This document shows, piece by piece, positions 3,973 to 13,966 of a stretch of DNA of 64,000 nucleotides. The position numbers and the translations under genes are program-made. Source of the DNA: Nitrospirota bacterium (GTDB lineage: Bacteria > Nitrospirota > Nitrospiria > SBBL01 > JAADHI01); contig JAJDBT010000032.1 of assembly GCA_029261215.1 (NCBI GenBank), positions 4,002 through 68,001 on the forward strand, in the 5' to 3' direction. The notes beneath the pieces were generated by a model. That model did no database searches and had not been told where the DNA came from. It saw only the letters and a program-made list of their open reading frames with translations. Position 1 is the stretch's first letter. Each line of letters begins with the position of its first letter.

Positions 3973-4374
3973 CTACCTATTTTGGACCATCCGTTTTGGG
4001 CCATCCTTGAAAAGGATTTCGATTTTGTTTCGTTCAATCACCGCAACAATAAAACCAATGCCAAAGGTCGCATGGTCAATCATCTGGTTTTCTTTAAAGT
4101 TGCCCTGTGTACTGTATTTCTTCGCATCAGAATAATCATCCCCTTCAATTTTACCCATCAGCACTTCATATTCAGACTTCTTCGTTTTTCGGGTTGTGCC
4201 GGGCGCTTTTTTCTCCGGGGGTTTCTCACGATAATTATGGTGACCATTACATGTTTTACATTTTGCTTTTTTGGGAAAGTCATCCACCAAGGCGACAATT
4301 TTATGATCTAACATTAACTTACATTTTGTACACCACGATACAATGTCATTGCCCACTTCATATTGGATTGTCAT
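3973..4374 (-). CDS. Hypothetical zinc-ribbon protein
   Basis: 133-aa protein with CxxC...CxxC (CTKCK...CKTCNG), then a Lys-rich linker and a small C-terminal domain. No family recognised. Confidence 0.55.
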   Translation of the reverse strand: MTIQYEVGNDIVSWCTKCKLMLDHKIVALVDDFPKKAKCKTCNGHHNYREKPPEKKAPGTTRKTKKSEYEVLMGKIEGDDYSDAKKYSTQGNFKENQMIDHATFGIGFIVAVIERNKIEILFKDGPKRMVQNR

Positions 4375-4483
4375 AGACTGTCTTTCTTTGACTGGATTAA
4401 AAGATGCACTCGATCACTGACATCATCCTCTAATCGGGCTTCAGAGTCAAGAAAAGGCTCAAAATACGCCAATCTACGCCGCT

Positions 4484-4522
4484 TAAAAAAACACGTTAGA
4501 TGAAAGACCTTCGGGGTTCATC
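4484..4522 (-). terminator. Possible intrinsic terminator after nirB
   Basis: The minus strand reads GAUGAA-CCCCGAAGGUCU-UUCAUC at the nirB stop, then UAACGUG and U7. The 7-nt gap between stem and U-tract weakens the call. Confidence 0.35.
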
Positions 4523-7020
4523 TACCCGTTATTTTCCGCTTCCTGAAGGACTTCAATCAGACCCGGACCATCAAATTGAAAAGGGTACAGCGGGTCTTCG
4601 GCTTCTTTCCACGGATCTTTATAGGCATCCACCGCTTCCTGCATTTTTTCTTCGAGATTGGCACAGATGCCCAAAGAGTCCTCAATCAAAATACCTTTTA
4701 AAAGGTCGATGCCAATCCTTTCGACAAAACCATAGGTCCGCTCCAGATATTTGGCGTGCTGCCGGTAATATTCCAGGAACCGGCTTGTGTACTGGATGAC
4801 CGCTTCAGGGCGATCCACCGTGCAAAGCAGGTCTCCTTTACGAATCGTGCTGCCCGCTGCCCCACCGATATAAATCTCCCAACATCCGCCTTCAATGGCC
4901 ACAATACCAACATCTTTCACATAGGCTTCTGCGCAGTTGCGAGGGCAGCCCGTCACAGCCATTTTGACTTTATGTGGAGATTCCACACCTTGAAAACGGC
5001 GTTCGATTTCCTGTGCCAGAGAAATCGAGTCCCCCAGTCCAAAGCGGCAAAAATCGGTACCGACACAGCTTTTTACGGTACGAAAAGCCTTGGTGTAGGC
5101 GTGGCCGCTGGGCAATCCGATGTCCTTCCAAATGGCAGGGAGATCTTCTTTTTTGATGCCCAGAAGATCAATGCGTTGCCCTCCGGTAAACTTCACCATT
5201 TTGGCTTTATATTTGACAGCGGCCTGGGCAATTCTCAGCAACTCGTCGGGGCTCGTCACACCGCCCATAATTCTGGGAACGACAGAAAAGGTCCCATCTT
5301 TTTGAATATTGGCATGGACACGGTCATTAATAAACCGCGCATCACGCTCGTCTTCGTAATCTTTGGGCCAAAGAGTCTTGAGCAAGGAGGCCAGGCCCGT
5401 TTTTGTGGTCGGATCTTCCTCGCCCTCTCCCAAGACTTGAAGGGTCGCGCTCACTGATTTTAAGCCCCTCGAACGCACTTCTCGAACCAGCTGGGATTTT
5501 TCAAGGGGAATGCCCGGCACATAATAATGCTCGCTGGCGTCGTAAGAGACTTTTCCGATCCTGGATTCAATCAACTGGGCGATAAAACCACGGCACGACC
5601 CACAGCCCTGTCCGGCCCTGGTTTTTGTGCCAATGGCTGCAACACTCGTGCAGTTGTCATTATCAATTGCAGATAAAATGTCGCCTTTGCATACCCCGTT
5701 ACAATTGCAAATCTGGGCGGAATTCGGCAAATCCGCCGCATTGAACAATCGCGCGCCTTCGATCGACCCAAAAAGGATTTCTCCACGATTTTCAGGCAAG
5801 GGTTTTTCATTTTGAAAAAGCTGCATCAGGCTGTCGCTGAGCTCGGTGTCGCCCAACAAAATGGCACCATGAATTTTATTGTCTCGGACAATGAGTTTTT
5901 TATAAACGCCTCGGCTCGGATCGCGGTACACCAAAATTTCGTCATCTGTTTCATCGGTCTCTTTTTCGCCCATCGAGGTCAAGTCCACGCCCATCACTTT
6001 CAGCTTTGTACCCGTCTTCGACCCGATATATTCCGCATCTTCATTCACACCCGTTAGAATATCCGCCAAAACCGCCACCTGCTGCCAAATGGGATCAACA
6101 AGACCATAGGTTTTGCCTCGATGTTCAATACATTCTCCCACCGCATAAATATGGGGGTCATTCGTTCTCATTTGATCATCGACAAGAATACCGCGATTCA
6201 CCTTAAGATGACTCTTATCCGCCACCTCAACAATCGGGACAATGCCTGCGCTGATCACCACCAGATCGGTTTCCAAAAGGCTGCCATCATTAAAAACAAG
6301 CCGACCCACCTTGCCATTTTTTTCAACCAGCTGCGTGCTAAAGGTTCGAGTCAAAACACGCAGACCCATCGCGCCCATCGCGCCCTCTAAAATCTTGGCC
6401 GCTTCCCTGTCCAGCTGGGAAGGCATGAGTTGATCAGCTGCTTCAATGACAGACACCTCCAGATCGTGCGTCATCAGACCGCGCGCCGCTTCCAGCCCCA
6501 GTAGCCCGCCACCGATGACTGCCGCTTTTTTGCAGTTTTTCGCATAGTCCGCAATCAGGTCACAATCATCAATGGTTCTAAATAGAAAAACCCCCGGCAA
6601 ATCACTGCCCTTGATCCTCGGCACAAAAGGGCGTGCACCTGTTGCAACAATCAATTCATCGTAGTCGGCCTCAATCAGATCCGCACCCTTTTCTCCCGCG
6701 ACTTCCGATCCGTAAGGCGGAGTGCCTTTTGAAAGTTTCAGCCCGAATACCTTTTTTTGCGCCCGATCAATATGGGTCACTTTCACCCCGACGTGCAGTG
6801 TAATGTCGTTGTCCGTGTACCATTGCAGCGGGTTGATAAAAATATCATCAGGCGCTTGTGTCTGATTGAGGACGTTGCTCAATAAAATACGGTTATAGTT
6901 TCCGTAGGGCTCTGCGCCAAACATCACAATTTCGAAGGCATCGCGGTCCCGTTTCAATATTTCGTCCACCGCTCTGGCGCCAGCCATCCCATTTCCGATC
7001 ACAACCAGTTTTTTCTTCAC
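4522..7020 (-). CDS. nirB: NAD(P)H-dependent nitrite reductase large subunit
   Basis: FAD site VVIGNGMAG, NAD site AAVIGGGLLGLEAA, a BFD-like 2Fe-2S region (ICNCNGVCKGD...GQGCGSCRG), and a sirohaem/4Fe-4S domain (CVGTDFC...VTGCPRNCAEA). The start is set at GTG 7020, which has a GAGGAG SD 6 nt upstream; the ORF track extends to TTG 7050. Confidence 0.9.
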   Translation of the reverse strand: MKKKLVVIGNGMAGARAVDEILKRDRDAFEIVMFGAEPYGNYNRILLSNVLNQTQAPDDIFINPLQWYTDNDITLHVGVKVTHIDRAQKKVFGLKLSKGTPPYGSEVAGEKGADLIEADYDELIVATGARPFVPRIKGSDLPGVFLFRTIDDCDLIADYAKNCKKAAVIGGGLLGLEAARGLMTHDLEVSVIEAADQLMPSQLDREAAKILEGAMGAMGLRVLTRTFSTQLVEKNGKVGRLVFNDGSLLETDLVVISAGIVPIVEVADKSHLKVNRGILVDDQMRTNDPHIYAVGECIEHRGKTYGLVDPIWQQVAVLADILTGVNEDAEYIGSKTGTKLKVMGVDLTSMGEKETDETDDEILVYRDPSRGVYKKLIVRDNKIHGAILLGDTELSDSLMQLFQNEKPLPENRGEILFGSIEGARLFNAADLPNSAQICNCNGVCKGDILSAIDNDNCTSVAAIGTKTRAGQGCGSCRGFIAQLIESRIGKVSYDASEHYYVPGIPLEKSQLVREVRSRGLKSVSATLQVLGEGEEDPTTKTGLASLLKTLWPKDYEDERDARFINDRVHANIQKDGTFSVVPRIMGGVTSPDELLRIAQAAVKYKAKMVKFTGGQRIDLLGIKKEDLPAIWKDIGLPSGHAYTKAFRTVKSCVGTDFCRFGLGDSISLAQEIERRFQGVESPHKVKMAVTGCPRNCAEAYVKDVGIVAIEGGCWEIYIGGAAGSTIRKGDLLCTVDRPEAVIQYTSRFLEYYRQHAKYLERTYGFVERIGIDLLKGILIEDSLGICANLEEKMQEAVDAYKDPWKEAEDPLYPFQFDGPGLIEVLQEAENNG

Positions 7021-7062
7021 ACACTTCTCCTCTGTTTTTTCAAGACACAAGCAAACAAATGT

Positions 7063-7404
7063 TTACAGCTTCACTAACTCCACCAAAGCCGGGTGATATT
7101 CAATAAAAAGCGTGCCTTCCTCGACCCAGGCCGGAAAAGTCCGAACCGTTTCATTCGGGGCACTTCCCATTCCGGTTTTCAAATCAAACTTGTGACCATG
7201 CAGGGGGCAAACCACTTCGCCATTTCCGATAATCCCTTCAGAAAGCGGCCCGTTTGAATGCGGGCAGCGATTTTCAATGGCCGTCACCAAACCATCCCTG
7301 GATCTAAAAACTGCAATGCCTTCTTCTTCCACTTGATAACACAATCCCTGCCCCAAGGGCACCTTTTCAATGGGGCCGAGATTAATACGCCATGATTTTT
7401 CCAT
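7063..7404 (-). CDS. nirD: Nitrite reductase small subunit (Rieske-like)
   Basis: 113-aa protein with a Rieske-type fold carrying CPH...CPLHG. It lies directly upstream of nirB and has an AAGGAG SD. Confidence 0.85.
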   Translation of the reverse strand: MEKSWRINLGPIEKVPLGQGLCYQVEEEGIAVFRSRDGLVTAIENRCPHSNGPLSEGIIGNGEVVCPLHGHKFDLKTGMGSAPNETVRTFPAWVEEGTLFIEYHPALVELVKL

Positions 7405-7436
7405 TTTGAGCTCCTTGATGTGACATTAAAATCAAT

Positions 7437-7471
7437 AAAAAAAGGCGCCTAGATCAATTGATCCAGGCGCC
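7437..7471 (-). terminator. Intrinsic-terminator-like hairpin 35 nt upstream of the nirD start (putative attenuator)
   Basis: The minus strand reads GGCGCCUGGAUCAA/UUGAUCUAGGCGCC, a roughly 12-bp stem with one G-U pair, followed by U7. The stem is better on the minus strand; on the plus strand the same position is an A-C mismatch. Confidence 0.7.
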
Positions 7472-7527
7472 TTTGCCTAAAAACCGAACAACAACTCACC
7501 TTAAAGTAGTAGCAATCATCATGCCTA

Positions 7528-7583
7528 AAACACTTAGAAAAGGAAAAACCATAAAATATCTTTTTTTTCAAACACTTAGAAAA
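7528..7583. repeat. Two copies of a 14-nt direct repeat AAACACTTAGAAAA in the nas-nir spacer
   Basis: Exact copies at 7528-7541 and 7570-7583, with starts 42 nt apart (about four helical turns). They sit in an AT-rich non-coding region upstream of the nirD leader hairpin. Confidence 0.6.
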
Positions 7584-7725
7584 CAGACAAAAGACTGTCC
7601 CCTCGAATAACCAGGGATCAGACCCTACAATAATGTCTGCTTCCAAACAAAAACCGCAGAAATTGCATCCTAAACCAGAACAGAACAAGACCCTGATTCA
7701 TTCCGGTTCCTCGCTTTTTCAGACC

Positions 7726-9579
7726 TTAATGATCATGCATCACAACGCCCACTTCAGGTCTCTCAGCCAGGCCTGAAGTTCGAGCCAGGTTTTCAAAACG
7801 CTGATTGCCCCAAAAAAATCCTCTTGGAACGGTCGTGGGAACCACCGAGACATAAAACAAGGCACGCCCGATCATCTCATGAGCGACTGCAATAAAAAAG
7901 ACCAGAGCCCAGCTCAACATCCCCCCAGCGGTTGAGGGTGGAAACAGACTAAACAGAATCGCACCAGCCATCAAAAAGCGCCAGCTCATCAAACGTAAAC
8001 GATAGATCTTCCCGTGCTGCTCTGTCATCAGCATCCGGGAAATTGCCGCCTCTTCTCCCCGCCGCGTTAACTCCCGCAGGTGGGCATGCAATGCCACACC
8101 TTGAAGAAGTAATCCGCCCGCAAAAAAAAGCGCCAGCACCCGAAGCAGCGGCGCGACAGTCACACTCGCCCACAGTCCTGTAAAACCAAAAATCAAGGCA
8201 AGCGCACTGCTTCCCAGAATGAACCCACTCGAAGCAAAAGCCGCGCCGGAATGCCAATGATCCCAGAAGGGCCGCGCCGGAATCCGATAACACCGATACA
8301 TGGCATAAATCCCTAATGGGCCAAAAACAGAAGCCGCGCTGCCAATAACGGTCGGCAACAGATTCGTAATCACATCCGGTAACCACGCTGCCAAAACAGG
8401 AAAAACCGTCACAAGGCTGTAGGCGGCGATGAGTCCATAAAATCCTCCCATTGCCGCAATTTCACGGCTCACCCAGGAATGACGCAGGTTGTTCATCGCC
8501 CGATAAAAATATTGCGGCTTGCCCAGATGCAGCGTGGACAACACGAGCCCGAAGGTTTGCAAGGCCACAATTGTAAAAAGCGTCAGCCCCATTGCAATGG
8601 GATGATTTTTAGAAGAGAACAATTCTGCGGCCGTACTGCTGACCTTTGGCAAGAGAAAAAGAGCCAGAAAAGCACCCACGGCAAACTGGGAAATCAGGGT
8701 AAACAACACCAGCGGGTCTTCCCGTGAACGAAGCTTGTCCCACCCCCAATTCACAGGAGATTTCGACTTTTTCCCCTTAATTTTATAATGAGGTGCTGCA
8801 TCCCCATCTGTAGCTGCATTCTTTGTTTGCAAGGTGTCCTGTTCATAACGGACGGGGGCGTCATCGAGTCGTTGAAAAGATTCCGGTAAGGTTTGATTGA
8901 GTTGAAAGCGGATATTTGGACGTGAAATCTTAGGATCCGTAAAAGAGGGGATCGTGAGTTTGACATCCTGTTGTTTTTTCGGAATTTCATCGATCACGCC
9001 AAAATCAAGCGCGTTCGCCAGACAGGCATCCACACAAGCAGGCTGCAAGCCCACTTCAAGGCGGTCAACACACATATTGCATTTTTGAACCTGACCTTTT
9101 TCCGTATCCAGCTGCGGCGCATTATAGGGGCACACCCAGGTACAGTACCCGCAGCCAAAACAAATTTCAGGGTCCTGCAAAACCGCGCCGTATTCCAGAT
9201 ATTTTGTGTACGCACGTGTCGGACACCCTTTCAAACAAACCGGGTCTTCGCAATGGTTGCAGGCCATCGAAATATTAATGCGCGTGACATCGGGATAAGT
9301 GCCGCCCTCGATGCTGCCCACACGCCGATACGCCATATGCGGCGCCAGGTCATTTTTTTCAGAGCACGCCGATTCACAGGCATGGCAGGCAATGCAGTTA
9401 TCCGCATTAAAATGAAAACCATGCTGTTTGTATCGATTGGGATTCGCCTCACTGTTTGGCGTGCAGCCGTAGTCGTTAATCACCAGAGGCGCACCCACAA
9501 GTTCCGGATAGTCTTTATCGAGCGCGATTGTCGTACCGTGTTGACTTTTTAGGCGTAAACCCGTTTCCGTATTACTCAT
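7726..9579 (-). CDS. Fusion protein: four-cluster 4Fe-4S ferredoxin domain (DmsB/NrfC-like) plus an 8-TM DmsC/NrfD-like membrane anchor
   Basis: Four Cys clusters are present: CIACHACESAC, CNHCEDPVCLKGCP, CFGCGYCTWVCP and CNMCVDRL...CVDAC. About 8 hydrophobic helices follow, including the LHLGKP motif. There is no twin-arginine signal. The start is set at ATG 9579 (AGGGGA SD, 10 nt after the upstream stop); the track start at 9606 would overlap the upstream gene by 17 nt. Confidence 0.8.
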   Translation of the reverse strand: MSNTETGLRLKSQHGTTIALDKDYPELVGAPLVINDYGCTPNSEANPNRYKQHGFHFNADNCIACHACESACSEKNDLAPHMAYRRVGSIEGGTYPDVTRINISMACNHCEDPVCLKGCPTRAYTKYLEYGAVLQDPEICFGCGYCTWVCPYNAPQLDTEKGQVQKCNMCVDRLEVGLQPACVDACLANALDFGVIDEIPKKQQDVKLTIPSFTDPKISRPNIRFQLNQTLPESFQRLDDAPVRYEQDTLQTKNAATDGDAAPHYKIKGKKSKSPVNWGWDKLRSREDPLVLFTLISQFAVGAFLALFLLPKVSSTAAELFSSKNHPIAMGLTLFTIVALQTFGLVLSTLHLGKPQYFYRAMNNLRHSWVSREIAAMGGFYGLIAAYSLVTVFPVLAAWLPDVITNLLPTVIGSAASVFGPLGIYAMYRCYRIPARPFWDHWHSGAAFASSGFILGSSALALIFGFTGLWASVTVAPLLRVLALFFAGGLLLQGVALHAHLRELTRRGEEAAISRMLMTEQHGKIYRLRLMSWRFLMAGAILFSLFPPSTAGGMLSWALVFFIAVAHEMIGRALFYVSVVPTTVPRGFFWGNQRFENLARTSGLAERPEVGVVMHDH

Positions 9580-9589
9580 GCCTTGTCCC

Positions 9590-11770
9590 CTAATAGGTTC
9601 GTTCATTCAAAATCGATTTGGCCGCAGCAGCCTGATCACTCACATACTCAAGCCGTACGGCGGATTGTTTGTAGGCGGGCTGCCTTGAATAAGGATCAAG
9701 CAGGCCCAGCGCCAAGCGGTTGACACAGTTGTAATAATGCATGGGAATAAAGATGGCGTTCTCTGCCACCCGCTCCGTCAACTGCGCCAATACAAGCGCA
9801 GAGGAACGGCGCGACACCACCCGGACATAATCCATGGACTGAATCCCCAGTTTCTCGGCAGTTCTTGCGTTAATCTCCATAAAAGGCGTTGGGCTAAATT
9901 TGTTGATATTTCCAATTTTTCCGGTCTTGGTCCGTGTGTGCCAATGCTCCACCAGCCGACCCGTATTCAGCCAAAACGGATAGTCCTCATCAGGCACTTC
10001 ATTGTTGTCGATAAAAGGGAGAGGGATGAGCTTGGCCTTGCCGTCCGAAAATTTGAATTGGCCGTCCGTATAAAGACGTGGACTGCCTTGGGGGTTTTTA
10101 TCGTTACAGGGCCATTGAATACCCCGCGCCGCCTCGATTTTATCGTGGCTCATGCCCGAATAGTCACAAAGCCGCCCCCTGGACGCCTCACGAATTTCAT
10201 CAAACACGGCCTCGGAAGCTTCTGCAAAAGGCATGTCTTTGGCACGTTCAAAGTATTTGGCCAACTGGGTGAAAATCCAAAGATCCGGTTTTGCCTGACC
10301 TGGCGGTTCAACCACTTTTCGCACCAGATTCACACGTCGTTCCGTATTGGTAAACACCCCGGTCTTTTCTCCCCACAAGGCCGCAGGTAAAAAAATATGG
10401 GCCGACTCGGCCGTTTCGACATCCGCGTAGGCATCCTGCACCACCAGAAATTCAAGCTGTTCCAATATTTTTCTGATTTTTGGACTATTGGGCATGGAGG
10501 TCATCGGATTGGTGGCAATGAGCCAAAGGCCCTTGATTTCACCACGCTCGATGGCGGGGAAAATATCTGTTTCGGTCAAGCCGCGTTTTTCGGGAAAGTG
10601 TCGGGCATCAACCCCCCAAAAATCAGCCGCAAAGGCGCGGTCTTCCGCATTTTCCAACTGCCGGTAGCCTGGGAGTCCGGAACAGGAAGAAAACTCGCGT
10701 GTGCCCATTGCGTTACACTGTCCCGTAATCGAAAGCGATGTGCCGCCGGGTTTCCCGATATTGCCCGTCATCAGGTTTAAATTGTTAATCGCCACCACAC
10801 CGTCAGAGCCATGTGTGGATTGATTGATGCCCATCGTCCAGATCGTCATCGCGGCACCTGCACCGGCATATATACGGGCGGCTTTTCGGATCATTTTTGC
10901 AGGGATGCCGCAGATGGGTTCGGCCATTTCCGGGCTGTACTGATCCACCAATGCCTCAAAATCCTGAAATCCATTGGTATGTGCCTGGATATAATCTTTA
11001 TCCTCCAGGCCTTCTTTTAAGATCACGTGAGCCATTGCGTTTAAGAGCACAAGATCCGTACCGGGGGTGATGGGCAGATGCATATCCGCCATTTGAGCAA
11101 ACATGGTCACACGGGGGTCCACCACAATAATGGGAAAGCGGCGGCGGTCGTAAGCTTCTTTTAAGCGGTAATAGATAATGGGGTGCTGCTCCGGCAGATT
11201 GGAGCCGATCGCAAGCAGACAGCCCGTGTGTTCAAAATCGTCATAACACCCTGGCGGTCCGTCACTGCCAAAAGACCGTTTGTAGCCGGAAACAGCGGAA
11301 GCCATGCACAAAGTGGTGTTGCCATCGTAATTGTTGGTGCCAATGACGCCTCGAACCAGCTTTCCCAGGGTGTAAAATTCTTCAGTGTAGATTTGACCTG
11401 TGGACACGATGGCAAAACTGTCTCGGCCATACAAGGCTTGAATTCTTGAAATTTCCGAAGCTGTTTTTCTTAAGGACTCGTCCCAGCTTGTTTCTAAAAA
11501 GGGGTCTGCACGGTCTTTTCGAATCAGCGGTGCGACACCTCGGTTTTTGGACTCAAACACTTCATATTCATAAATCCCTTTTAAACACAGTTTCCCTCGA
11601 TTCACATCGGCATTTTCTACACCGCGGGCCGTCACGGCCTTCCCCGCTTTGTCCACCCCGACTTCAAGAGAACACCCGGTAGAACAATAACCGCAGGTGG
11701 TATACACCCACTTTTCAACCGGCTTTACGGGTAATTGAATCGGATTTTTATGCAAACGTCCAAATAACAT
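9590..11770 (-). CDS. Molybdopterin (bis-MGD) oxidoreductase, Nas/Nap-clade nitrate reductase catalytic subunit, no Tat signal
   Basis: N-terminal C-x2-C-x3-C-x28-C FeS motif (TTCGYCSTGC...LCLKG). The Mo-ligand segment NTTLCMASAVSGY is typical of NapA/NasA/NarB and differs from the Sec/Cys-His of formate dehydrogenases. The protein is 726 aa, about the size of NarB/NasA, and sits next to nirDB. Confidence 0.75.
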   Translation of the reverse strand: MLFGRLHKNPIQLPVKPVEKWVYTTCGYCSTGCSLEVGVDKAGKAVTARGVENADVNRGKLCLKGIYEYEVFESKNRGVAPLIRKDRADPFLETSWDESLRKTASEISRIQALYGRDSFAIVSTGQIYTEEFYTLGKLVRGVIGTNNYDGNTTLCMASAVSGYKRSFGSDGPPGCYDDFEHTGCLLAIGSNLPEQHPIIYYRLKEAYDRRRFPIIVVDPRVTMFAQMADMHLPITPGTDLVLLNAMAHVILKEGLEDKDYIQAHTNGFQDFEALVDQYSPEMAEPICGIPAKMIRKAARIYAGAGAAMTIWTMGINQSTHGSDGVVAINNLNLMTGNIGKPGGTSLSITGQCNAMGTREFSSCSGLPGYRQLENAEDRAFAADFWGVDARHFPEKRGLTETDIFPAIERGEIKGLWLIATNPMTSMPNSPKIRKILEQLEFLVVQDAYADVETAESAHIFLPAALWGEKTGVFTNTERRVNLVRKVVEPPGQAKPDLWIFTQLAKYFERAKDMPFAEASEAVFDEIREASRGRLCDYSGMSHDKIEAARGIQWPCNDKNPQGSPRLYTDGQFKFSDGKAKLIPLPFIDNNEVPDEDYPFWLNTGRLVEHWHTRTKTGKIGNINKFSPTPFMEINARTAEKLGIQSMDYVRVVSRRSSALVLAQLTERVAENAIFIPMHYYNCVNRLALGLLDPYSRQPAYKQSAVRLEYVSDQAAAAKSILNERTY

Positions 11771-11783
11771 GTGTCCTCACTAC

Positions 11784-11821
11784 AAAAAAAGGCGCATAGA
11801 CCAACATTCGATCTAGGCGCC
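11784..11821 (-). terminator. Intrinsic-terminator-like hairpin 13 nt upstream of the nitrate reductase start (putative attenuator)
   Basis: The minus strand reads GGCGCCUAGAUC-GAAUGUU-GGUCUAUGCGCC followed by U7, then GUAGUGAGGACAC-AUG. Both stem arms are near-identical to those of the hairpin at 7437-7471. Confidence 0.6.
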
Positions 11822-11831
11822 TTAGCCAAAA

Positions 11832-11851
11832 GAAACACGTCCTTGTGTTTC
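11832..11851 (-). promoter_or_regulatory. Leader hairpin with hexaloop AAGGAC (ANTAR-target-like)
   Basis: The minus strand reads GAAACAC-AAGGAC-GUGUUUC, a 7-bp stem whose hexaloop has A at position 1 and G at position 4. It lies 10 nt upstream of the terminator 5' arm. Confidence 0.35.
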
Positions 11852-12052
11852 GAACACTTTTATAAAAGCAATATCAGTGCCTTTTTCTAAAAAAAGGCTT
11901 AAACCGCGTTATAACAGACCTAAAAGCATGATGTTCAATAAAACCTGTTTTTTTTAACAGTAGATACGGAACAAAAAACCAACAACTTTGTCGGAAGTCC
12001 GACGAAAAAGAACGATTCAGCCCTGTCCAAGATAGAAGAGAAAACCAGGTCA

Positions 12053-13966
12053 CTATGGATTCAGCGTCAACTGAATGTCATAGGCGCCCAAGAGTCCCGC
12101 CGAAGGCGGGGCATTTTCAGAGCGCATGACTTCAACGGTAAAGGTTCCAGTTTCGGCCGCCGTAAAGGTAATAGACGCCGCGAGCGTGTCTTTGTCATTT
12201 TTTGGGCAGTTGCTGAACCCGGTAAAAGGATTCACGCCGCAAGAAAAGTAGTCGGCGTTACCGGGGTTGTCATTTGTACTGATTGACACACCCGATGGAT
12301 TTTTGATCGTCAAAAAGGGATCTGCCCCATTTGAAAGGTTGAATGTGTTCACAGTGTAGGAGCTTCCCGATGCCGCATTAAACGAGATCACGTCAATGTC
12401 ACCCACAGGGTCAGTCGCATTTAGATAGAGCGTATGATGTTGGGTTGAGCCCACAATGAGTGTAGCTTCAGGGACGTTCAGACCCGCTTCCGATGCATCG
12501 GCAAAAAGTTCGACTTCCCTTCCTTGCAAAAGGGTTTGAAAATCACTGTTAAAAGAAGAAGTCTCACTTCGGATCGAAAACTGCGTCCAGAAGGTCTCAA
12601 GCGTTGTGGGTTTGTCCGCAGGAAAACTTAAAAAGGTGTGAAAGATTTCTGTAAAGCTCAGATCGACCGGATCATTCTCACCGCCACTGCTCTGAACACC
12701 ATCAAAAAGATCCCATAAAATCCCGGAGACTGAAATTTCACTCGTAGTGAAAATCGCAAGTGACGGAAGCTGTCCCACTGACGGAGCAGTATAGTCTTCC
12801 ATATTAATAGAAAGCGCACCGTTAGAGAAGGTGTCCAGGTACACCGGTGAATTCCGCATGGCGAGAGAGAAGAAGTTTGCCCAGCCTTCCGACCAGCTGA
12901 GCCGAATATCCTGATCATTGTCTGTAAAAGTATGGAATCCACCCGGAGAGTCATCCCTCAAAAACTTGCTGACAATAAAATGACCGTATTCGTGAATAAT
13001 CACTGAATCATCATATTCGTCCGAGTCACTCTGGCTGCCCAGCAGTGAGATCGCATCTGCAACATCATCATAAAAAGTTCCTTCCGTGCTGCCCGGCTCC
13101 CAATACACCGTCACCAGGGGCGGCACACAGTCGGGGAAGGGCGATGCGAGGCAGGAGTTAACCGCCTGCACAAAAACACTCGCATCCATCAGAACATCCA
13201 TAATATTAAAGGCCCCGCCGATTCTGTTTGCTGCAGTGGCCAGCAAATTCTGTGTGGCTGAAAAAGTCCCGCCACCGACGCTATCGTCTACGCCCGGAGA
13301 GATGAACCAAAGGACTTCTTTAGTCGTTTTGTTATCTTTGATTTCAATTTTTGTCTTCTGTGTCACATCCGTTTTGCTGAACACCTTAAGAAATACCCCG
13401 CCGCTGTTCTGGCTGTTATCGACCGTCAGGCTGAAATCGCCATCGCCATTCGTCGTTGAAGTCCCGAGCGAAACAAAGCCATCGATCGCAATGACCTCAA
13501 TCACGGCATTTCGAATCGGCTTTGACGTGAGTACCCCCGTAAACCCATTTTGGTTAAATTCACGGTCTTCATAGCTGGCCTTCCCGGAAAGTGAGAGCGA
13601 TGCAGCTCCCAGATTCGCACTCCTGGCCCAGAGAATCGCCGTGCCGCTCACGCCAGCGGAGCTTGCAGTAATGACGGCAACACCCACCTGGTTTGCAGTG
13701 ACAAGCCCATTGGGGTTTACTGAAATCGTAACACTGTCATCCGACTGCCAGGTAAAAACAGCATCTTGAACCACCTCTCCTGTCGAAAGCCGTAAGGTCG
13801 CCGTCAACTGCAAACCCTCTCCTCCAACCACTAGCGTCTTTGTGCTCGGGGTAATGGTAATCGTATTTATTTGAGGCCCAGGAATGCTGTTGCTGCTATT
13901 GTTTTTACAACCATAGCCGAACAAGAGTAGGCTCATAAAAATCAGGGGGAGTATTTTGATTTTCAA
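12053..13966 (-). CDS. Secreted/lipoprotein zinc metalloprotease with Big_2-like, CarboxypepD_reg-like and C-terminal PPC-like domains
   Basis: HExxH motif (IIHEYGHFIV). An Ig-like segment follows the signal peptide, then VIEVIAIDG...NGDGDFSL (carboxypeptidase-regulatory-like), and a beta-rich C-terminus. The start is set at TTG 13966, giving the signal MKIKILPLIFMSLLLFGYGC; the track start at 14035 is also TTG and overlaps the upstream gene. Confidence 0.7.
   Translation of the reverse strand: MKIKILPLIFMSLLLFGYGCKNNSSNSIPGPQINTITITPSTKTLVVGGEGLQLTATLRLSTGEVVQDAVFTWQSDDSVTISVNPNGLVTANQVGVAVITASSAGVSGTAILWARSANLGAASLSLSGKASYEDREFNQNGFTGVLTSKPIRNAVIEVIAIDGFVSLGTSTTNGDGDFSLTVDNSQNSGGVFLKVFSKTDVTQKTKIEIKDNKTTKEVLWFISPGVDDSVGGGTFSATQNLLATAANRIGGAFNIMDVLMDASVFVQAVNSCLASPFPDCVPPLVTVYWEPGSTEGTFYDDVADAISLLGSQSDSDEYDDSVIIHEYGHFIVSKFLRDDSPGGFHTFTDNDQDIRLSWSEGWANFFSLAMRNSPVYLDTFSNGALSINMEDYTAPSVGQLPSLAIFTTSEISVSGILWDLFDGVQSSGGENDPVDLSFTEIFHTFLSFPADKPTTLETFWTQFSIRSETSSFNSDFQTLLQGREVELFADASEAGLNVPEATLIVGSTQHHTLYLNATDPVGDIDVISFNAASGSSYTVNTFNLSNGADPFLTIKNPSGVSISTNDNPGNADYFSCGVNPFTGFSNCPKNDKDTLAASITFTAAETGTFTVEVMRSENAPPSAGLLGAYDIQLTLNP

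Follow-up and report, generated by a model that had tools for sequence, protein, structure and literature searches.

Two adjoining minus-strand genes within a 64,000-nucleotide stretch of Nitrospirota bacterium DNA (contig JAJDBT010000032.1, positions 4,002 to 68,001; this whole stretch is hereafter the window) encode a 726-aa molybdoenzyme of the Nas/Nap nitrate reductase group and a DmsB-like ferredoxin domain fused to a DmsC-like membrane anchor. On balance, the pair is probably a cytoplasm-facing, membrane-anchored quinol:nitrate oxidoreductase for nitrate assimilation, with three complex iron-sulfur molybdoenzyme (CISM) modules carried on two polypeptides. Textbook assimilatory nitrate reductases receive their electrons from soluble ferredoxin/flavodoxin or NAD(P)H modules. 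Judged from the sequences, all the modules of the pair are known ones and its architecture is that of a CISM; what appears to be undescribed is the Nas-type catalytic partner, the covalent fusion of the iron-sulfur (FeS) protein with the anchor, and the quinol-dependent assimilatory nitrate reduction that these would imply. No description of a Nas-type reductase with a DmsBC-like or quinol anchor was found in the full-text literature (subscription journals being largely outside its coverage), which agrees with an earlier note on this DNA, made from the letters alone, whose author knew of no characterised example, and a 2021 survey of NrfD-like complexes includes no nitrate reductase complex (PMC8076601).

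The catalytic subunit

The gene for the catalytic subunit (9590-11770, minus strand) was assigned to a cytoplasmic enzyme of the Nas/Nap group with a molybdenum-bis(molybdopterin guanine dinucleotide) (Mo-bisMGD) cofactor on the basis of its Pfam domains, a tree, diagnostic alignment columns and a check for export signals. It matches the Pfam models Molybdop_Fe4S4 (residues 19-65), Molybdopterin and Molydop_binding, and the C-x2-C-x3-C-x28-C motif reported in the earlier note is plainly readable in its translation as C26-x2-C29-x3-C33-x28-C62 (11585-11695, minus strand), i.e., as the N-terminal FS0 [4Fe-4S] cysteine motif that goes with a molybdenum-bis(pyranopterin guanine dinucleotide) catalytic subunit of the CISM type. 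The Mo-ligand segment, as seen in the translation and the alignment, spans N151-Y163 (NTTLCMASAVSGY, with Cys155-Met156; 11282-11320, minus strand).

For the placement of the enzyme, eight family members were aligned with 17 references of annotated function (those of the Nas, NarB and NasN types, together with NapA, FdhF and, as outgroup, YdeP), and a neighbour-joining tree was built from 674 columns with 300 bootstraps. The Mo-ligand segment reads NTTLCMASAVSGYKRSFG in seven of the eight family members and CMSS in the one from Methylocaldum; the Nas/Nap references show CM(A/S)S at this site, and the FdhF references C-H or C-Q. The family forms a separate clade (100% bootstrap), which falls inside the Nas+Nap group at 97% (99% with the sister clade described below added) and together with FdhF at 0%, so that the grouping with a non-nitrate clade, which the earlier note had named as an outcome that would overturn its view, was not seen. 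Nitrate reductases and FdhF are told apart by 14 alignment columns; in 11 of these the family is nitrate reductase-like and in one formate dehydrogenase-like, the catalytic His of the formate dehydrogenases being replaced by Met and an Arg conserved in the FdhF references by Thr. The Mo-ligand segment is thereby of the NapA/NasA/NarB type and unlike that of the formate dehydrogenases, just as had been read from the letters. A further signature, S(I/V)TGQCNAMG, is shared with the sister clade, whereas canonical Nas enzymes have LTGQPNAMG.

Profile-based identification, by comparison, is ambiguous for this enzyme. Its top NCBIfam match is the Fdh-alpha model TIGR01591 (618 bits, under the cutoff of 666), and neither the NasC equivalog model NF047855 (528 bits, cutoff 1100) nor that of haloarchaeal NasA, NF041323 (464 bits, cutoff 1000), is passed; the NapA model gives 408 bits, and the score on the dmsA model TIGR02166 (135 bits, cutoff 778) shows that the enzyme is not DmsA-type. 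The closest PDB sequences are an FdhF chain, which comes out on top, and Desulfovibrio NapA. Translated matches in a plasmid collection rank annotated nitrate reductases (37-39.5% identity) above fdhF (32-36%) and napA (~30%), with no annotated nitrate reductase exceeding ~41% identity to the enzyme. A formate dehydrogenase identity, prompted by the top NCBIfam and PDB matches, was considered and rejected in view of the active-site residues and the tree: the selenocysteine/Cys-His pair and catalytic Arg of FdhF-type enzymes are Cys-Met and Thr here, and the TIGR01591 score stays below its cutoff. Membership in the Nas/Nap nitrate reductase group, and not among the formate dehydrogenases, is supported by these features, and the enzyme has the cytoplasmic location and the Nas/Nap active site of an assimilatory nitrate reductase.

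The fused electron-transfer and membrane subunit

The partner gene (7726-9606, minus strand), delineated from its translation, Pfam/TIGR models and homologues, encodes a single fused subunit of 626 aa or, likelier, 617 aa. Both of the starts given in the earlier note are present: the stop codon of the molybdoenzyme gene (TAG) lies at 9592-9590 on the minus strand, and an ATG at 9606 would make the fusion gene overlap it by 17 nt (626 aa), while an ATG at 9579, 10 nt past this stop and preceded by the purine-rich AGGGGACAAGG, would give 617 aa. The latter is the start chosen by gene callers and is likely the true one.

That the protein joins a four-cluster DmsB-type domain to an anchor of eight transmembrane (TM) helices with an LHLGKP motif, as the earlier note had proposed, is confirmed. 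The ferredoxin domain (residues 61-211; 8974-9426, minus strand), delimited by alignment with E. coli DmsB and by cysteine conservation, shares 41% identity with that protein (E = 3e-44), matches Fer4_11 at residues 112-204, and contains 16 cysteines arranged in the four groups of a four-cluster protein (C71/74/77/81, C116/119/124/128, C149/152/155/159 and C176/179/191/195), all invariant in 63 sequences. Against the DmsB model TIGR02951 the fusion reaches 170 bits (under the cutoff of 214), and against the narH model only 51 bits. A hydrophilic linker (residues 212-295; 8722-8973, minus strand), recognised from the alignment and hydropathy and ending in a Lys/Arg-rich stretch before TM1, leads into the DmsC/NrfD-like membrane domain (residues 296-586; 7849-8721, minus strand), recognised by PF04976 and modelled by AlphaFold, with a cytoplasmic N-terminus predicted from charge counts. 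The DmsC model PF04976 matches residues 296-585 (73 bits vs. a cutoff of 22), and the domain aligns with E. coli DmsC over the entire length of the latter, at 27% identity. A hydropathy scan found eight hydrophobic helices within residues 299-586; the LHLGKP motif is present, and there is no conserved transmembrane His pair that would suggest a haem site. In the AlphaFold model the membrane domain has a predicted local distance difference test (pLDDT) score mostly above 90, and the structures nearest to this modelled domain are the NrfD-like ActC, ActF and PsrC, which, alongside PF04976 and the invariant S357, H360, S377 and E382, marks it as an anchor of the NrfD/DmsC type. Only DmsC-type matches were returned when plasmids were searched with the membrane domain using tblastn.

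Past the region alignable to E. coli DmsC lies a C-terminal tail (residues 587-626; 7729-7848, minus strand), whose pattern, PTT.PG.FFW.N..FE.HAR.TGLA..PQVGV...H, is conserved across the family. At the other end, residues 20-60 (9427-9549) are also conserved, as SQHGT.I.L...YP.L.G.PL.ING..NPNRYKQHGF. Both of these stretches fall almost wholly outside the regions aligned with E. coli DmsB and DmsC, and either could be a surface contacted by the Nas subunit.

Export signals, topology and the putative quinol site

Neither protein carries a twin-arginine translocation (Tat) signal, as had been noticed from the letters, and this holds with alternative upstream starts included. No RR motif occurs in the ~22 residues ahead of the first Cys of the 726-aa molybdoenzyme, no Tat-like motif was found across the whole upstream open frame in any of its 59 orthologues, and an RRx-hydrophobic motif ahead of the first Cys motif is absent from all 63 fusion homologues. 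Both open reading frames begin at the earliest start codon after an in-frame stop, and there is therefore no space for a hidden leader; a Tat leader translated from an upstream start was considered and ruled out by these in-frame stops and by the absence of RR in the orthologues.

The distribution of lysine and arginine (K+R) in the fusion is strongly lopsided, with 24 such residues on the loops that share the side of the FeS domain vs. two on the opposite side in the window protein, and means of 21.8 vs. 0.9 over the 63 homologues, every one of which shows the bias; the 25 residues preceding TM1 contain 5.7 K+R on average across the family. The same script returned the opposite bias (4 vs. 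8) for the E. coli DmsC control, in agreement with the N-out topology that has been established experimentally for DmsC. The bias toward the FeS-domain side therefore leads to the prediction that the FeS domain, the LHLGKP loop and the C-terminal tail are cytoplasmic, with the DmsC-like domain inverted relative to DmsABC. The pair thus differs, both in having no Tat motif and in its K+R bias, from what defines DmsABC, i.e., Tat-exported, periplasm-facing DmsAB on an N-out DmsC. The inverted topology that the earlier note had deduced is in this way predicted by the positive-inside counts as well, though it is not without precedent, a like orientation having been proposed for SoeABC (PMC8076601).

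The predicted quinol-site loop H360-E382 (LHLGKP...S377..S380.E382; 8461-8529, minus strand), identified by alignment with DmsC and by invariance, would lie on the cytoplasmic side. S62, H65, S82 and E87 of DmsC, given as its quinone site, with mutational evidence that H65 and E87 are required for menaquinol oxidation (PMC8076601), align pairwise to S357, H360, S377 and E382 of the fusion, all four of which are invariant in the 63 sequences.

Conservation and gene neighbourhoods

The pair is a large conserved family and not a rarity. More than 3,500 relatives of the fusion were found at E <= 1e-10; among the best 120, for which coverage and identity were determined, query coverage is at least 85% (nearly always at least 92%) and identity 50-100%. 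With one genome scanned per species, at least 581 genomes were seen to encode a relative, the best 80 of which were used for the list of taxa and the survey of gene neighbourhoods. These 80 comprise Nitrospirota (Ca. Manganitrophaceae, which include the closest named genome, Nitrospira metagenome-assembled genomes (MAGs) and Troglogloeales), Gammaproteobacteria (Sulfuricaulis, Acidiferrobacterales, Thioalkalispiraceae, Thiohalobacter, Methylocaldum and the cultured Parahaliea aestuarii) and Betaproteobacteria (Thiobacillaceae, Nitrosomonadales and Burkholderiales). The public automatic labels call the catalytic subunit “nitrate reductase” or “assimilatory nitrate reductase catalytic subunit”, and the fusion “DmsC/YnfH family molybdoenzyme membrane anchor subunit” or “DMSO reductase iron-sulfur subunit”.

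A gene for the molybdoenzyme stands immediately upstream of the fusion in 57 of the 60 loci with sufficient upstream sequence, the two coding regions often overlapping or closely abutting, and the encoded enzymes are 58-84% identical and almost always exactly 726 aa long. Looking in the reverse direction gave three further molybdoenzyme orthologues, each adjoined by a fusion gene. The survey for the fusion beside nirBD that the earlier note had suggested as a check revealed a tight and wide linkage of the pair to nirB/nirD, as well as to narK-type major facilitator superfamily (MFS), PII and amt genes. A NirB homologue is found in 38 of the 44 loci longer than 12 kb, in several arrangements: Mo-fusion-nirD-nirB (where Mo is the molybdoenzyme gene) in the window and its nearest relatives, nirB-nirD-Mo-fusion in Gammaproteobacteria, nirB-Mo-fusion-nirD-MFS-kinase in Betaproteobacteria, including the cultured Sulfurirhabdus autotrophica, and amt-PII-MFS-kinase-Mo-fusion-mobA/MOSC-nirB-amt-PII in other Nitrospirota. 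The nitrogen-assimilation neighbours recorded in related loci are thus amt, PII, narK-type MFS, a PP2C/kinase gene, mobA/MOSC, nirB and nirD. As for the marks of an assimilatory cluster, nirD and nirB are present in the window, and the narK-type MFS, PII and amt genes in related loci. The gene with MOSC and NTP_transf_3 (MobA-like) domains follows the fusion in Nitrospirota locus L001 (11973-12914) and likewise in L009, L011 and L012; such a neighbour fits a local supply of the bis-MGD cofactor.

Fused DmsB-DmsC proteins reach well past this family, with 588 clusters at E <= 1e-30 when representatives at 50% identity were searched exhaustively. One remote branch, which shares 33-35% identity with the window fusion, has homologues named Planctomycetes/Verrucomicrobia, and two genomes of the Planctomycetes-Verrucomicrobia-Chlamydiae (PVC) group were examined. 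In both of them (L105:8001-11965 and L106:8001-11974), the fusion gene is followed, with a 4-nt overlap and in translational coupling, by one for a Nas-type molybdoenzyme of 745-758 aa, and this pair adjoins a nirA-type nitrite reductase, an MFS transporter and a CysJ-like diflavin reductase. The PVC molybdoenzyme has CMATA as its active-site segment and is sister to the window family at 63% bootstrap, inside the nitrate reductase group at 99%. The recurrence of a Nas-type enzyme paired with a Tat-less fused DmsBC protein in widely separated phyla is the strongest evidence that the two function jointly, and their conserved adjacency and overlapping coding regions suggest that the two proteins may form one complex.

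The nirDB genes and the surroundings of the pair

Downstream of the fusion gene, nirD (7063-7404, minus strand) encodes a NirD, recognised from its translation and domain/equivalog models, with complete Rieske ligands (C47-x-H49...C66-x2-H69), which scores 68.7 bits and so falls just under the nirD equivalog cutoff of 74.65; it may be a NasG-like redox-active ferredoxin. The following nirB (4522-7050, minus strand) encodes an NAD(P)H-dependent sirohaem nitrite reductase, identified by TIGR02374 (833 bits vs. a cutoff of 578) and by Pyr_redox_2, Fer2_BFD and NIR_SIR domains, and retaining the full FAD/NAD(P)H-binding module along with a BFD-like 2Fe-2S domain; gene callers start it 10 codons further in, which gives 832 aa. 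A gene for a dedicated NasB- or NasC-type reductase is missing, and NirB with the Rieske NirD could take this role; the partner that is conserved is instead the membrane-bound fusion. At 37 nt upstream of the nirD start there is a perfect 15-bp GC-rich hairpin, AAAGGCGCCTGGATC-AATT-GATCTAGGCGCCTTT, followed by TTTTTATT (7441-7474, minus strand), which looks like an intrinsic terminator or attenuator; an Rfam scan of 4000-12600 gave no match, for the hairpin included.

No homologues of a nitrate transporter, PII, a kinase or a regulator were found in the whole window. Within 1-22700, the four-gene nitrate/nitrite cluster sits among housekeeping genes (zapB/zapA, an MgsA-type AAA ATPase, xseA, a 2-hydroxyacid dehydrogenase, a recN-like gene, groEL, a ctpA-like gene and an M23 peptidase). 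The contig of the window is also contained in two Logan assemblies, SRR15505515 and SRR15505519.

Proposed function and alternative explanations

In the mechanism proposed here, quinol (menaquinol or ubiquinol) would give up its electrons near the cytoplasmic face of the eight-helix domain, at a DmsC-type site consisting of S357, H360, S377, S380 and E382. The DmsB-like domain, which is covalently attached, would conduct them along its four [4Fe-4S] clusters to FS0 and then to the Cys155-ligated Mo-bisMGD of the 726-aa Nas-type subunit. This subunit would reduce nitrate to nitrite in the cytoplasm, and the nitrite would then be converted to ammonium by the NAD(P)H-dependent NirB with NirD. Such a transfer is downhill, from menaquinone at ~-74 mV or ubiquinone at ~+100 mV to nitrate/nitrite at +420 mV. 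It is from the sequences that we infer quinol as the electron donor and a quinol:nitrate activity, and the physiological role would be an assimilatory one. The earlier note had envisaged a quinol-driven route all the way from nitrate to ammonium; this is upheld as a proposal for the step from nitrate to nitrite and not for the one after it, as NirB keeps its FAD/NAD(P)H module complete, so the nitrite-to-ammonium step is most likely driven by NADH and not by quinol. Many of the named carriers belong to taxa of chemolithoautotrophs or methanotrophs, in which making NAD(P)H is expensive, and the use of quinol would presumably spare them the reverse electron transport needed for NAD(P)H or ferredoxin. 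That Ca. Manganitrophus enrichments have been kept with nitrate as the nitrogen source (PMC9040806) is compatible with this idea, though not specific to these genes. A more speculative extension is that the NrfD/DmsC-like domain might use the ~0.3-0.5 V drop between quinol and nitrate to release or pump protons outward, so that nitrate assimilation would conserve energy; this is put forward because proton pathways have been proposed for NrfD-like proteins and the quinol-nitrate driving force is large, and we regard it as doubtful.

Several observations weigh against a dedicated, quinol-fed assimilatory enzyme made up of these two subunits. The FeS domain is modelled poorly by AlphaFold (pLDDT ~30). 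A 321-nt gap with the terminator-like hairpin and T-run separates the fusion gene from nirD, which qualifies the otherwise confirmed statement of the earlier note that nirD-nirB follow downstream on the same strand, and the hairpin is such that the molybdoenzyme-fusion pair and nirDB may be transcribed as two units, each under its own control. All four Rieske ligands are kept in 53 of the 57 NirD homologues of related clusters. In eight of the 80 loci (L050, L059, L039, L041, L021, L076, L067 and L079), a canonical NasA, 33-36% identical to the window molybdoenzyme, is encoded immediately downstream of the fusion, meaning that the family molybdoenzyme is not always the sole candidate nitrate reductase. 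One of these, L067, is missing the family enzyme altogether, the only molybdoenzyme beside its fusion being a canonical NasA with a C-terminal BFD-like 2Fe-2S domain, which hints that the fusion may serve more than one Nas type. Finally, a few loci (L007, L010 and L014) are without a molybdoenzyme gene adjoining the fusion. The contigs of L007 and L010 are short, and the gene may be past their ends.

As to what else these loci contain, the two short Nitrospirota contigs (L007:1141-6494 and L010:90-3891) carry a gene for a nirB-like protein (1061 aa) or nirA (554 aa), PII and the fusion. The third locus belongs to a Troglogloeales MAG (L014:7-4462), in which the fusion homologue (52% identical) comes right after two NuoM/NuoN-like genes (Proton_antipo_M), on a 6.2-kb contig without a molybdoenzyme gene. 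A canonical NasA with a BFD-like 2Fe-2S domain is also encoded a few kb upstream of the cluster in Sulfurirhabdus autotrophica (L101:2049-4808).

The Rieske ligands, complete in the window NirD as in most related ones, are the starting point for a different electron route, from NADH through NirB and the Rieske NirD to the molybdoenzyme, similar to NasB-NasG-NasC of Paracoccus, with the fusion being a tether or an alternative/overflow link to the quinone pool. The insertion of the betaproteobacterial molybdoenzyme and fusion genes between nirB and nirD also fits such a route, as do the NAD(P)H/FAD module and the BFD-like 2Fe-2S domain of NirB. What is conserved as a core, however, is the molybdoenzyme with the fusion and not the molybdoenzyme with NirD: nirD is absent and the pair yet kept in Nitrospirota loci L001, L005 and L011 and in the two PVC-group loci. 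The invariant quinol-site residues argue for a functional quinone site, and molybdoenzymes that carry FS0 canonically have a four-cluster domain of the DmsB type as their direct partner, all of which makes the NADH-fed route unlikely. The same chemistry as we propose could instead have a dissimilatory or redox-balancing role, with the pair acting as an electron sink, i.e., as an analogue of NarGHI without haem b, and, together with NirBD, carrying out cytoplasmic ammonification under O2 limitation. The link to the quinone pool, as in respiratory reductases, the additional canonical NasA of some carriers and the service of NirBD in NADH re-oxidation in enterobacteria all speak for this, but the genes nearby are markers of assimilation (amt, PII, and a transporter of the narK type together with a kinase) and include none for respiratory accessory functions, and the catalytic subunit is of the Nas/Nap type and not the NarG type, and such a role seems quite unlikely.

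Much less likely still is that the molybdoenzyme is no nitrate reductase at all and is a formate dehydrogenase or another oxyanion/sulfur oxidoreductase, possibly reducing quinone in the manner of SoeABC. Its best NCBIfam and PDB matches, TIGR01591 at 618 bits and an FdhF chain, would be consistent with this, as would its modest identity (at most ~41%) to any annotated nitrate reductase. The first of these matches nevertheless stays below its cutoff of 666, the His of formate dehydrogenases and the FdhF-conserved Arg are replaced by Met and Thr as in nitrate reductases, bootstrap support for a grouping with FdhF is 0%, and the nirBD/narK/PII context is kept across phyla; nitrite oxidation to quinone, for its part, would be strongly uphill. 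A quinol:nitrate oxidoreductase serving assimilation is accordingly the explanation we favour as the probable one.

Implications

If the proposal is correct, a quinol-fed Nas would represent a further class of electron donor for nitrate assimilation, present in Proteobacteria, Nitrospirota and PVC-group bacteria, and nitrate use would be cheaper wherever substrates deliver their electrons at the level of quinone or cytochrome, as with the oxidisers of sulfur, iron, manganese, nitrite and methane, which otherwise depend on reverse electron flow for their NAD(P)H or ferredoxin. Models of the cost of nitrogen assimilation would then change, and so would annotation: the catalytic subunit is already being counted as “nasA” in metagenomic surveys, and its partner is mislabelled as a DMSO reductase anchor. 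Should the anchor be inverted as predicted, it would be the second cytoplasm-facing one of the NrfD/DmsC type after the proposed SoeABC case, and, being covalently fused to its FeS partner, it offers a convenient system for studying how the fold functions in either orientation. Were the doubtful proton pumping true as well, the pair would be, by its mechanism, a third class of membrane nitrate reductase, one that faces the cytoplasm and contains no haem.

Comparison with known systems

With NarB, NasA, NasC and NasN the 726-aa molybdoenzyme shares a cytoplasmic location, FS0, a Cys-Met Mo-bisMGD site, membership in the Nas/Nap group and residence in clusters with nirBD or nirA and narK. The donors of those enzymes are soluble (ferredoxin/flavodoxin, NADH via NasB, NasC or NasG, or a fused NADPH diflavin module), whereas the molybdoenzyme described here forms its own clade, has GQC in place of GQP and comes with a membrane FeS/quinol partner. 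NarGHI resembles the proposed pair in being a cytoplasm-facing membrane quinol:nitrate oxidoreductase with a four-cluster subunit, but NarG belongs to another clade with an Asp ligand, and NarI, unlike the fusion, is a cytochrome b with two haems, whose oxidation of quinol at the periplasmic face gives a redox loop. Nap with NapGH likewise combines a Nap/Nas-type subunit with quinol electrons delivered via non-haem FeS and membrane proteins; there, however, NapA and NapG are Tat-exported and periplasmic, NapH is an unrelated four-helix protein, and NapB/NapC cytochromes are usual.

The fusion itself resembles E. coli DmsABC in its parts, having in common with it the eight helices and the conserved quinol-site residues, in addition to the identities to DmsB (41%) and DmsC (27%) already given. 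The pair differs from this system in that DmsAB is Tat-exported and periplasm-facing, DmsC is oriented the other way by the positive-inside rule and is not fused to DmsB, and DmsA is of another clade. SoeABC of Allochromatium vinosum and Aquifex aeolicus, compared by description only, works on sulfite and in the reverse direction (from sulfite to quinone), and has SoeB and SoeC as separate proteins. Like the pair, it nonetheless consists of a molybdoenzyme, a four-cluster protein and a haem-less DmsC-like anchor of eight helices. The quinone-site residues of SoeC are His65, Ser82, Ser85 and Glu87, and its anchor is expected to be inverted relative to DmsC and cytoplasm-facing (PMC8076601). A cytoplasm-facing complex on an inverted DmsC-like anchor, an orientation that for Soe is itself a proposal (PMC8076601), is also what is predicted for the pair of the window.

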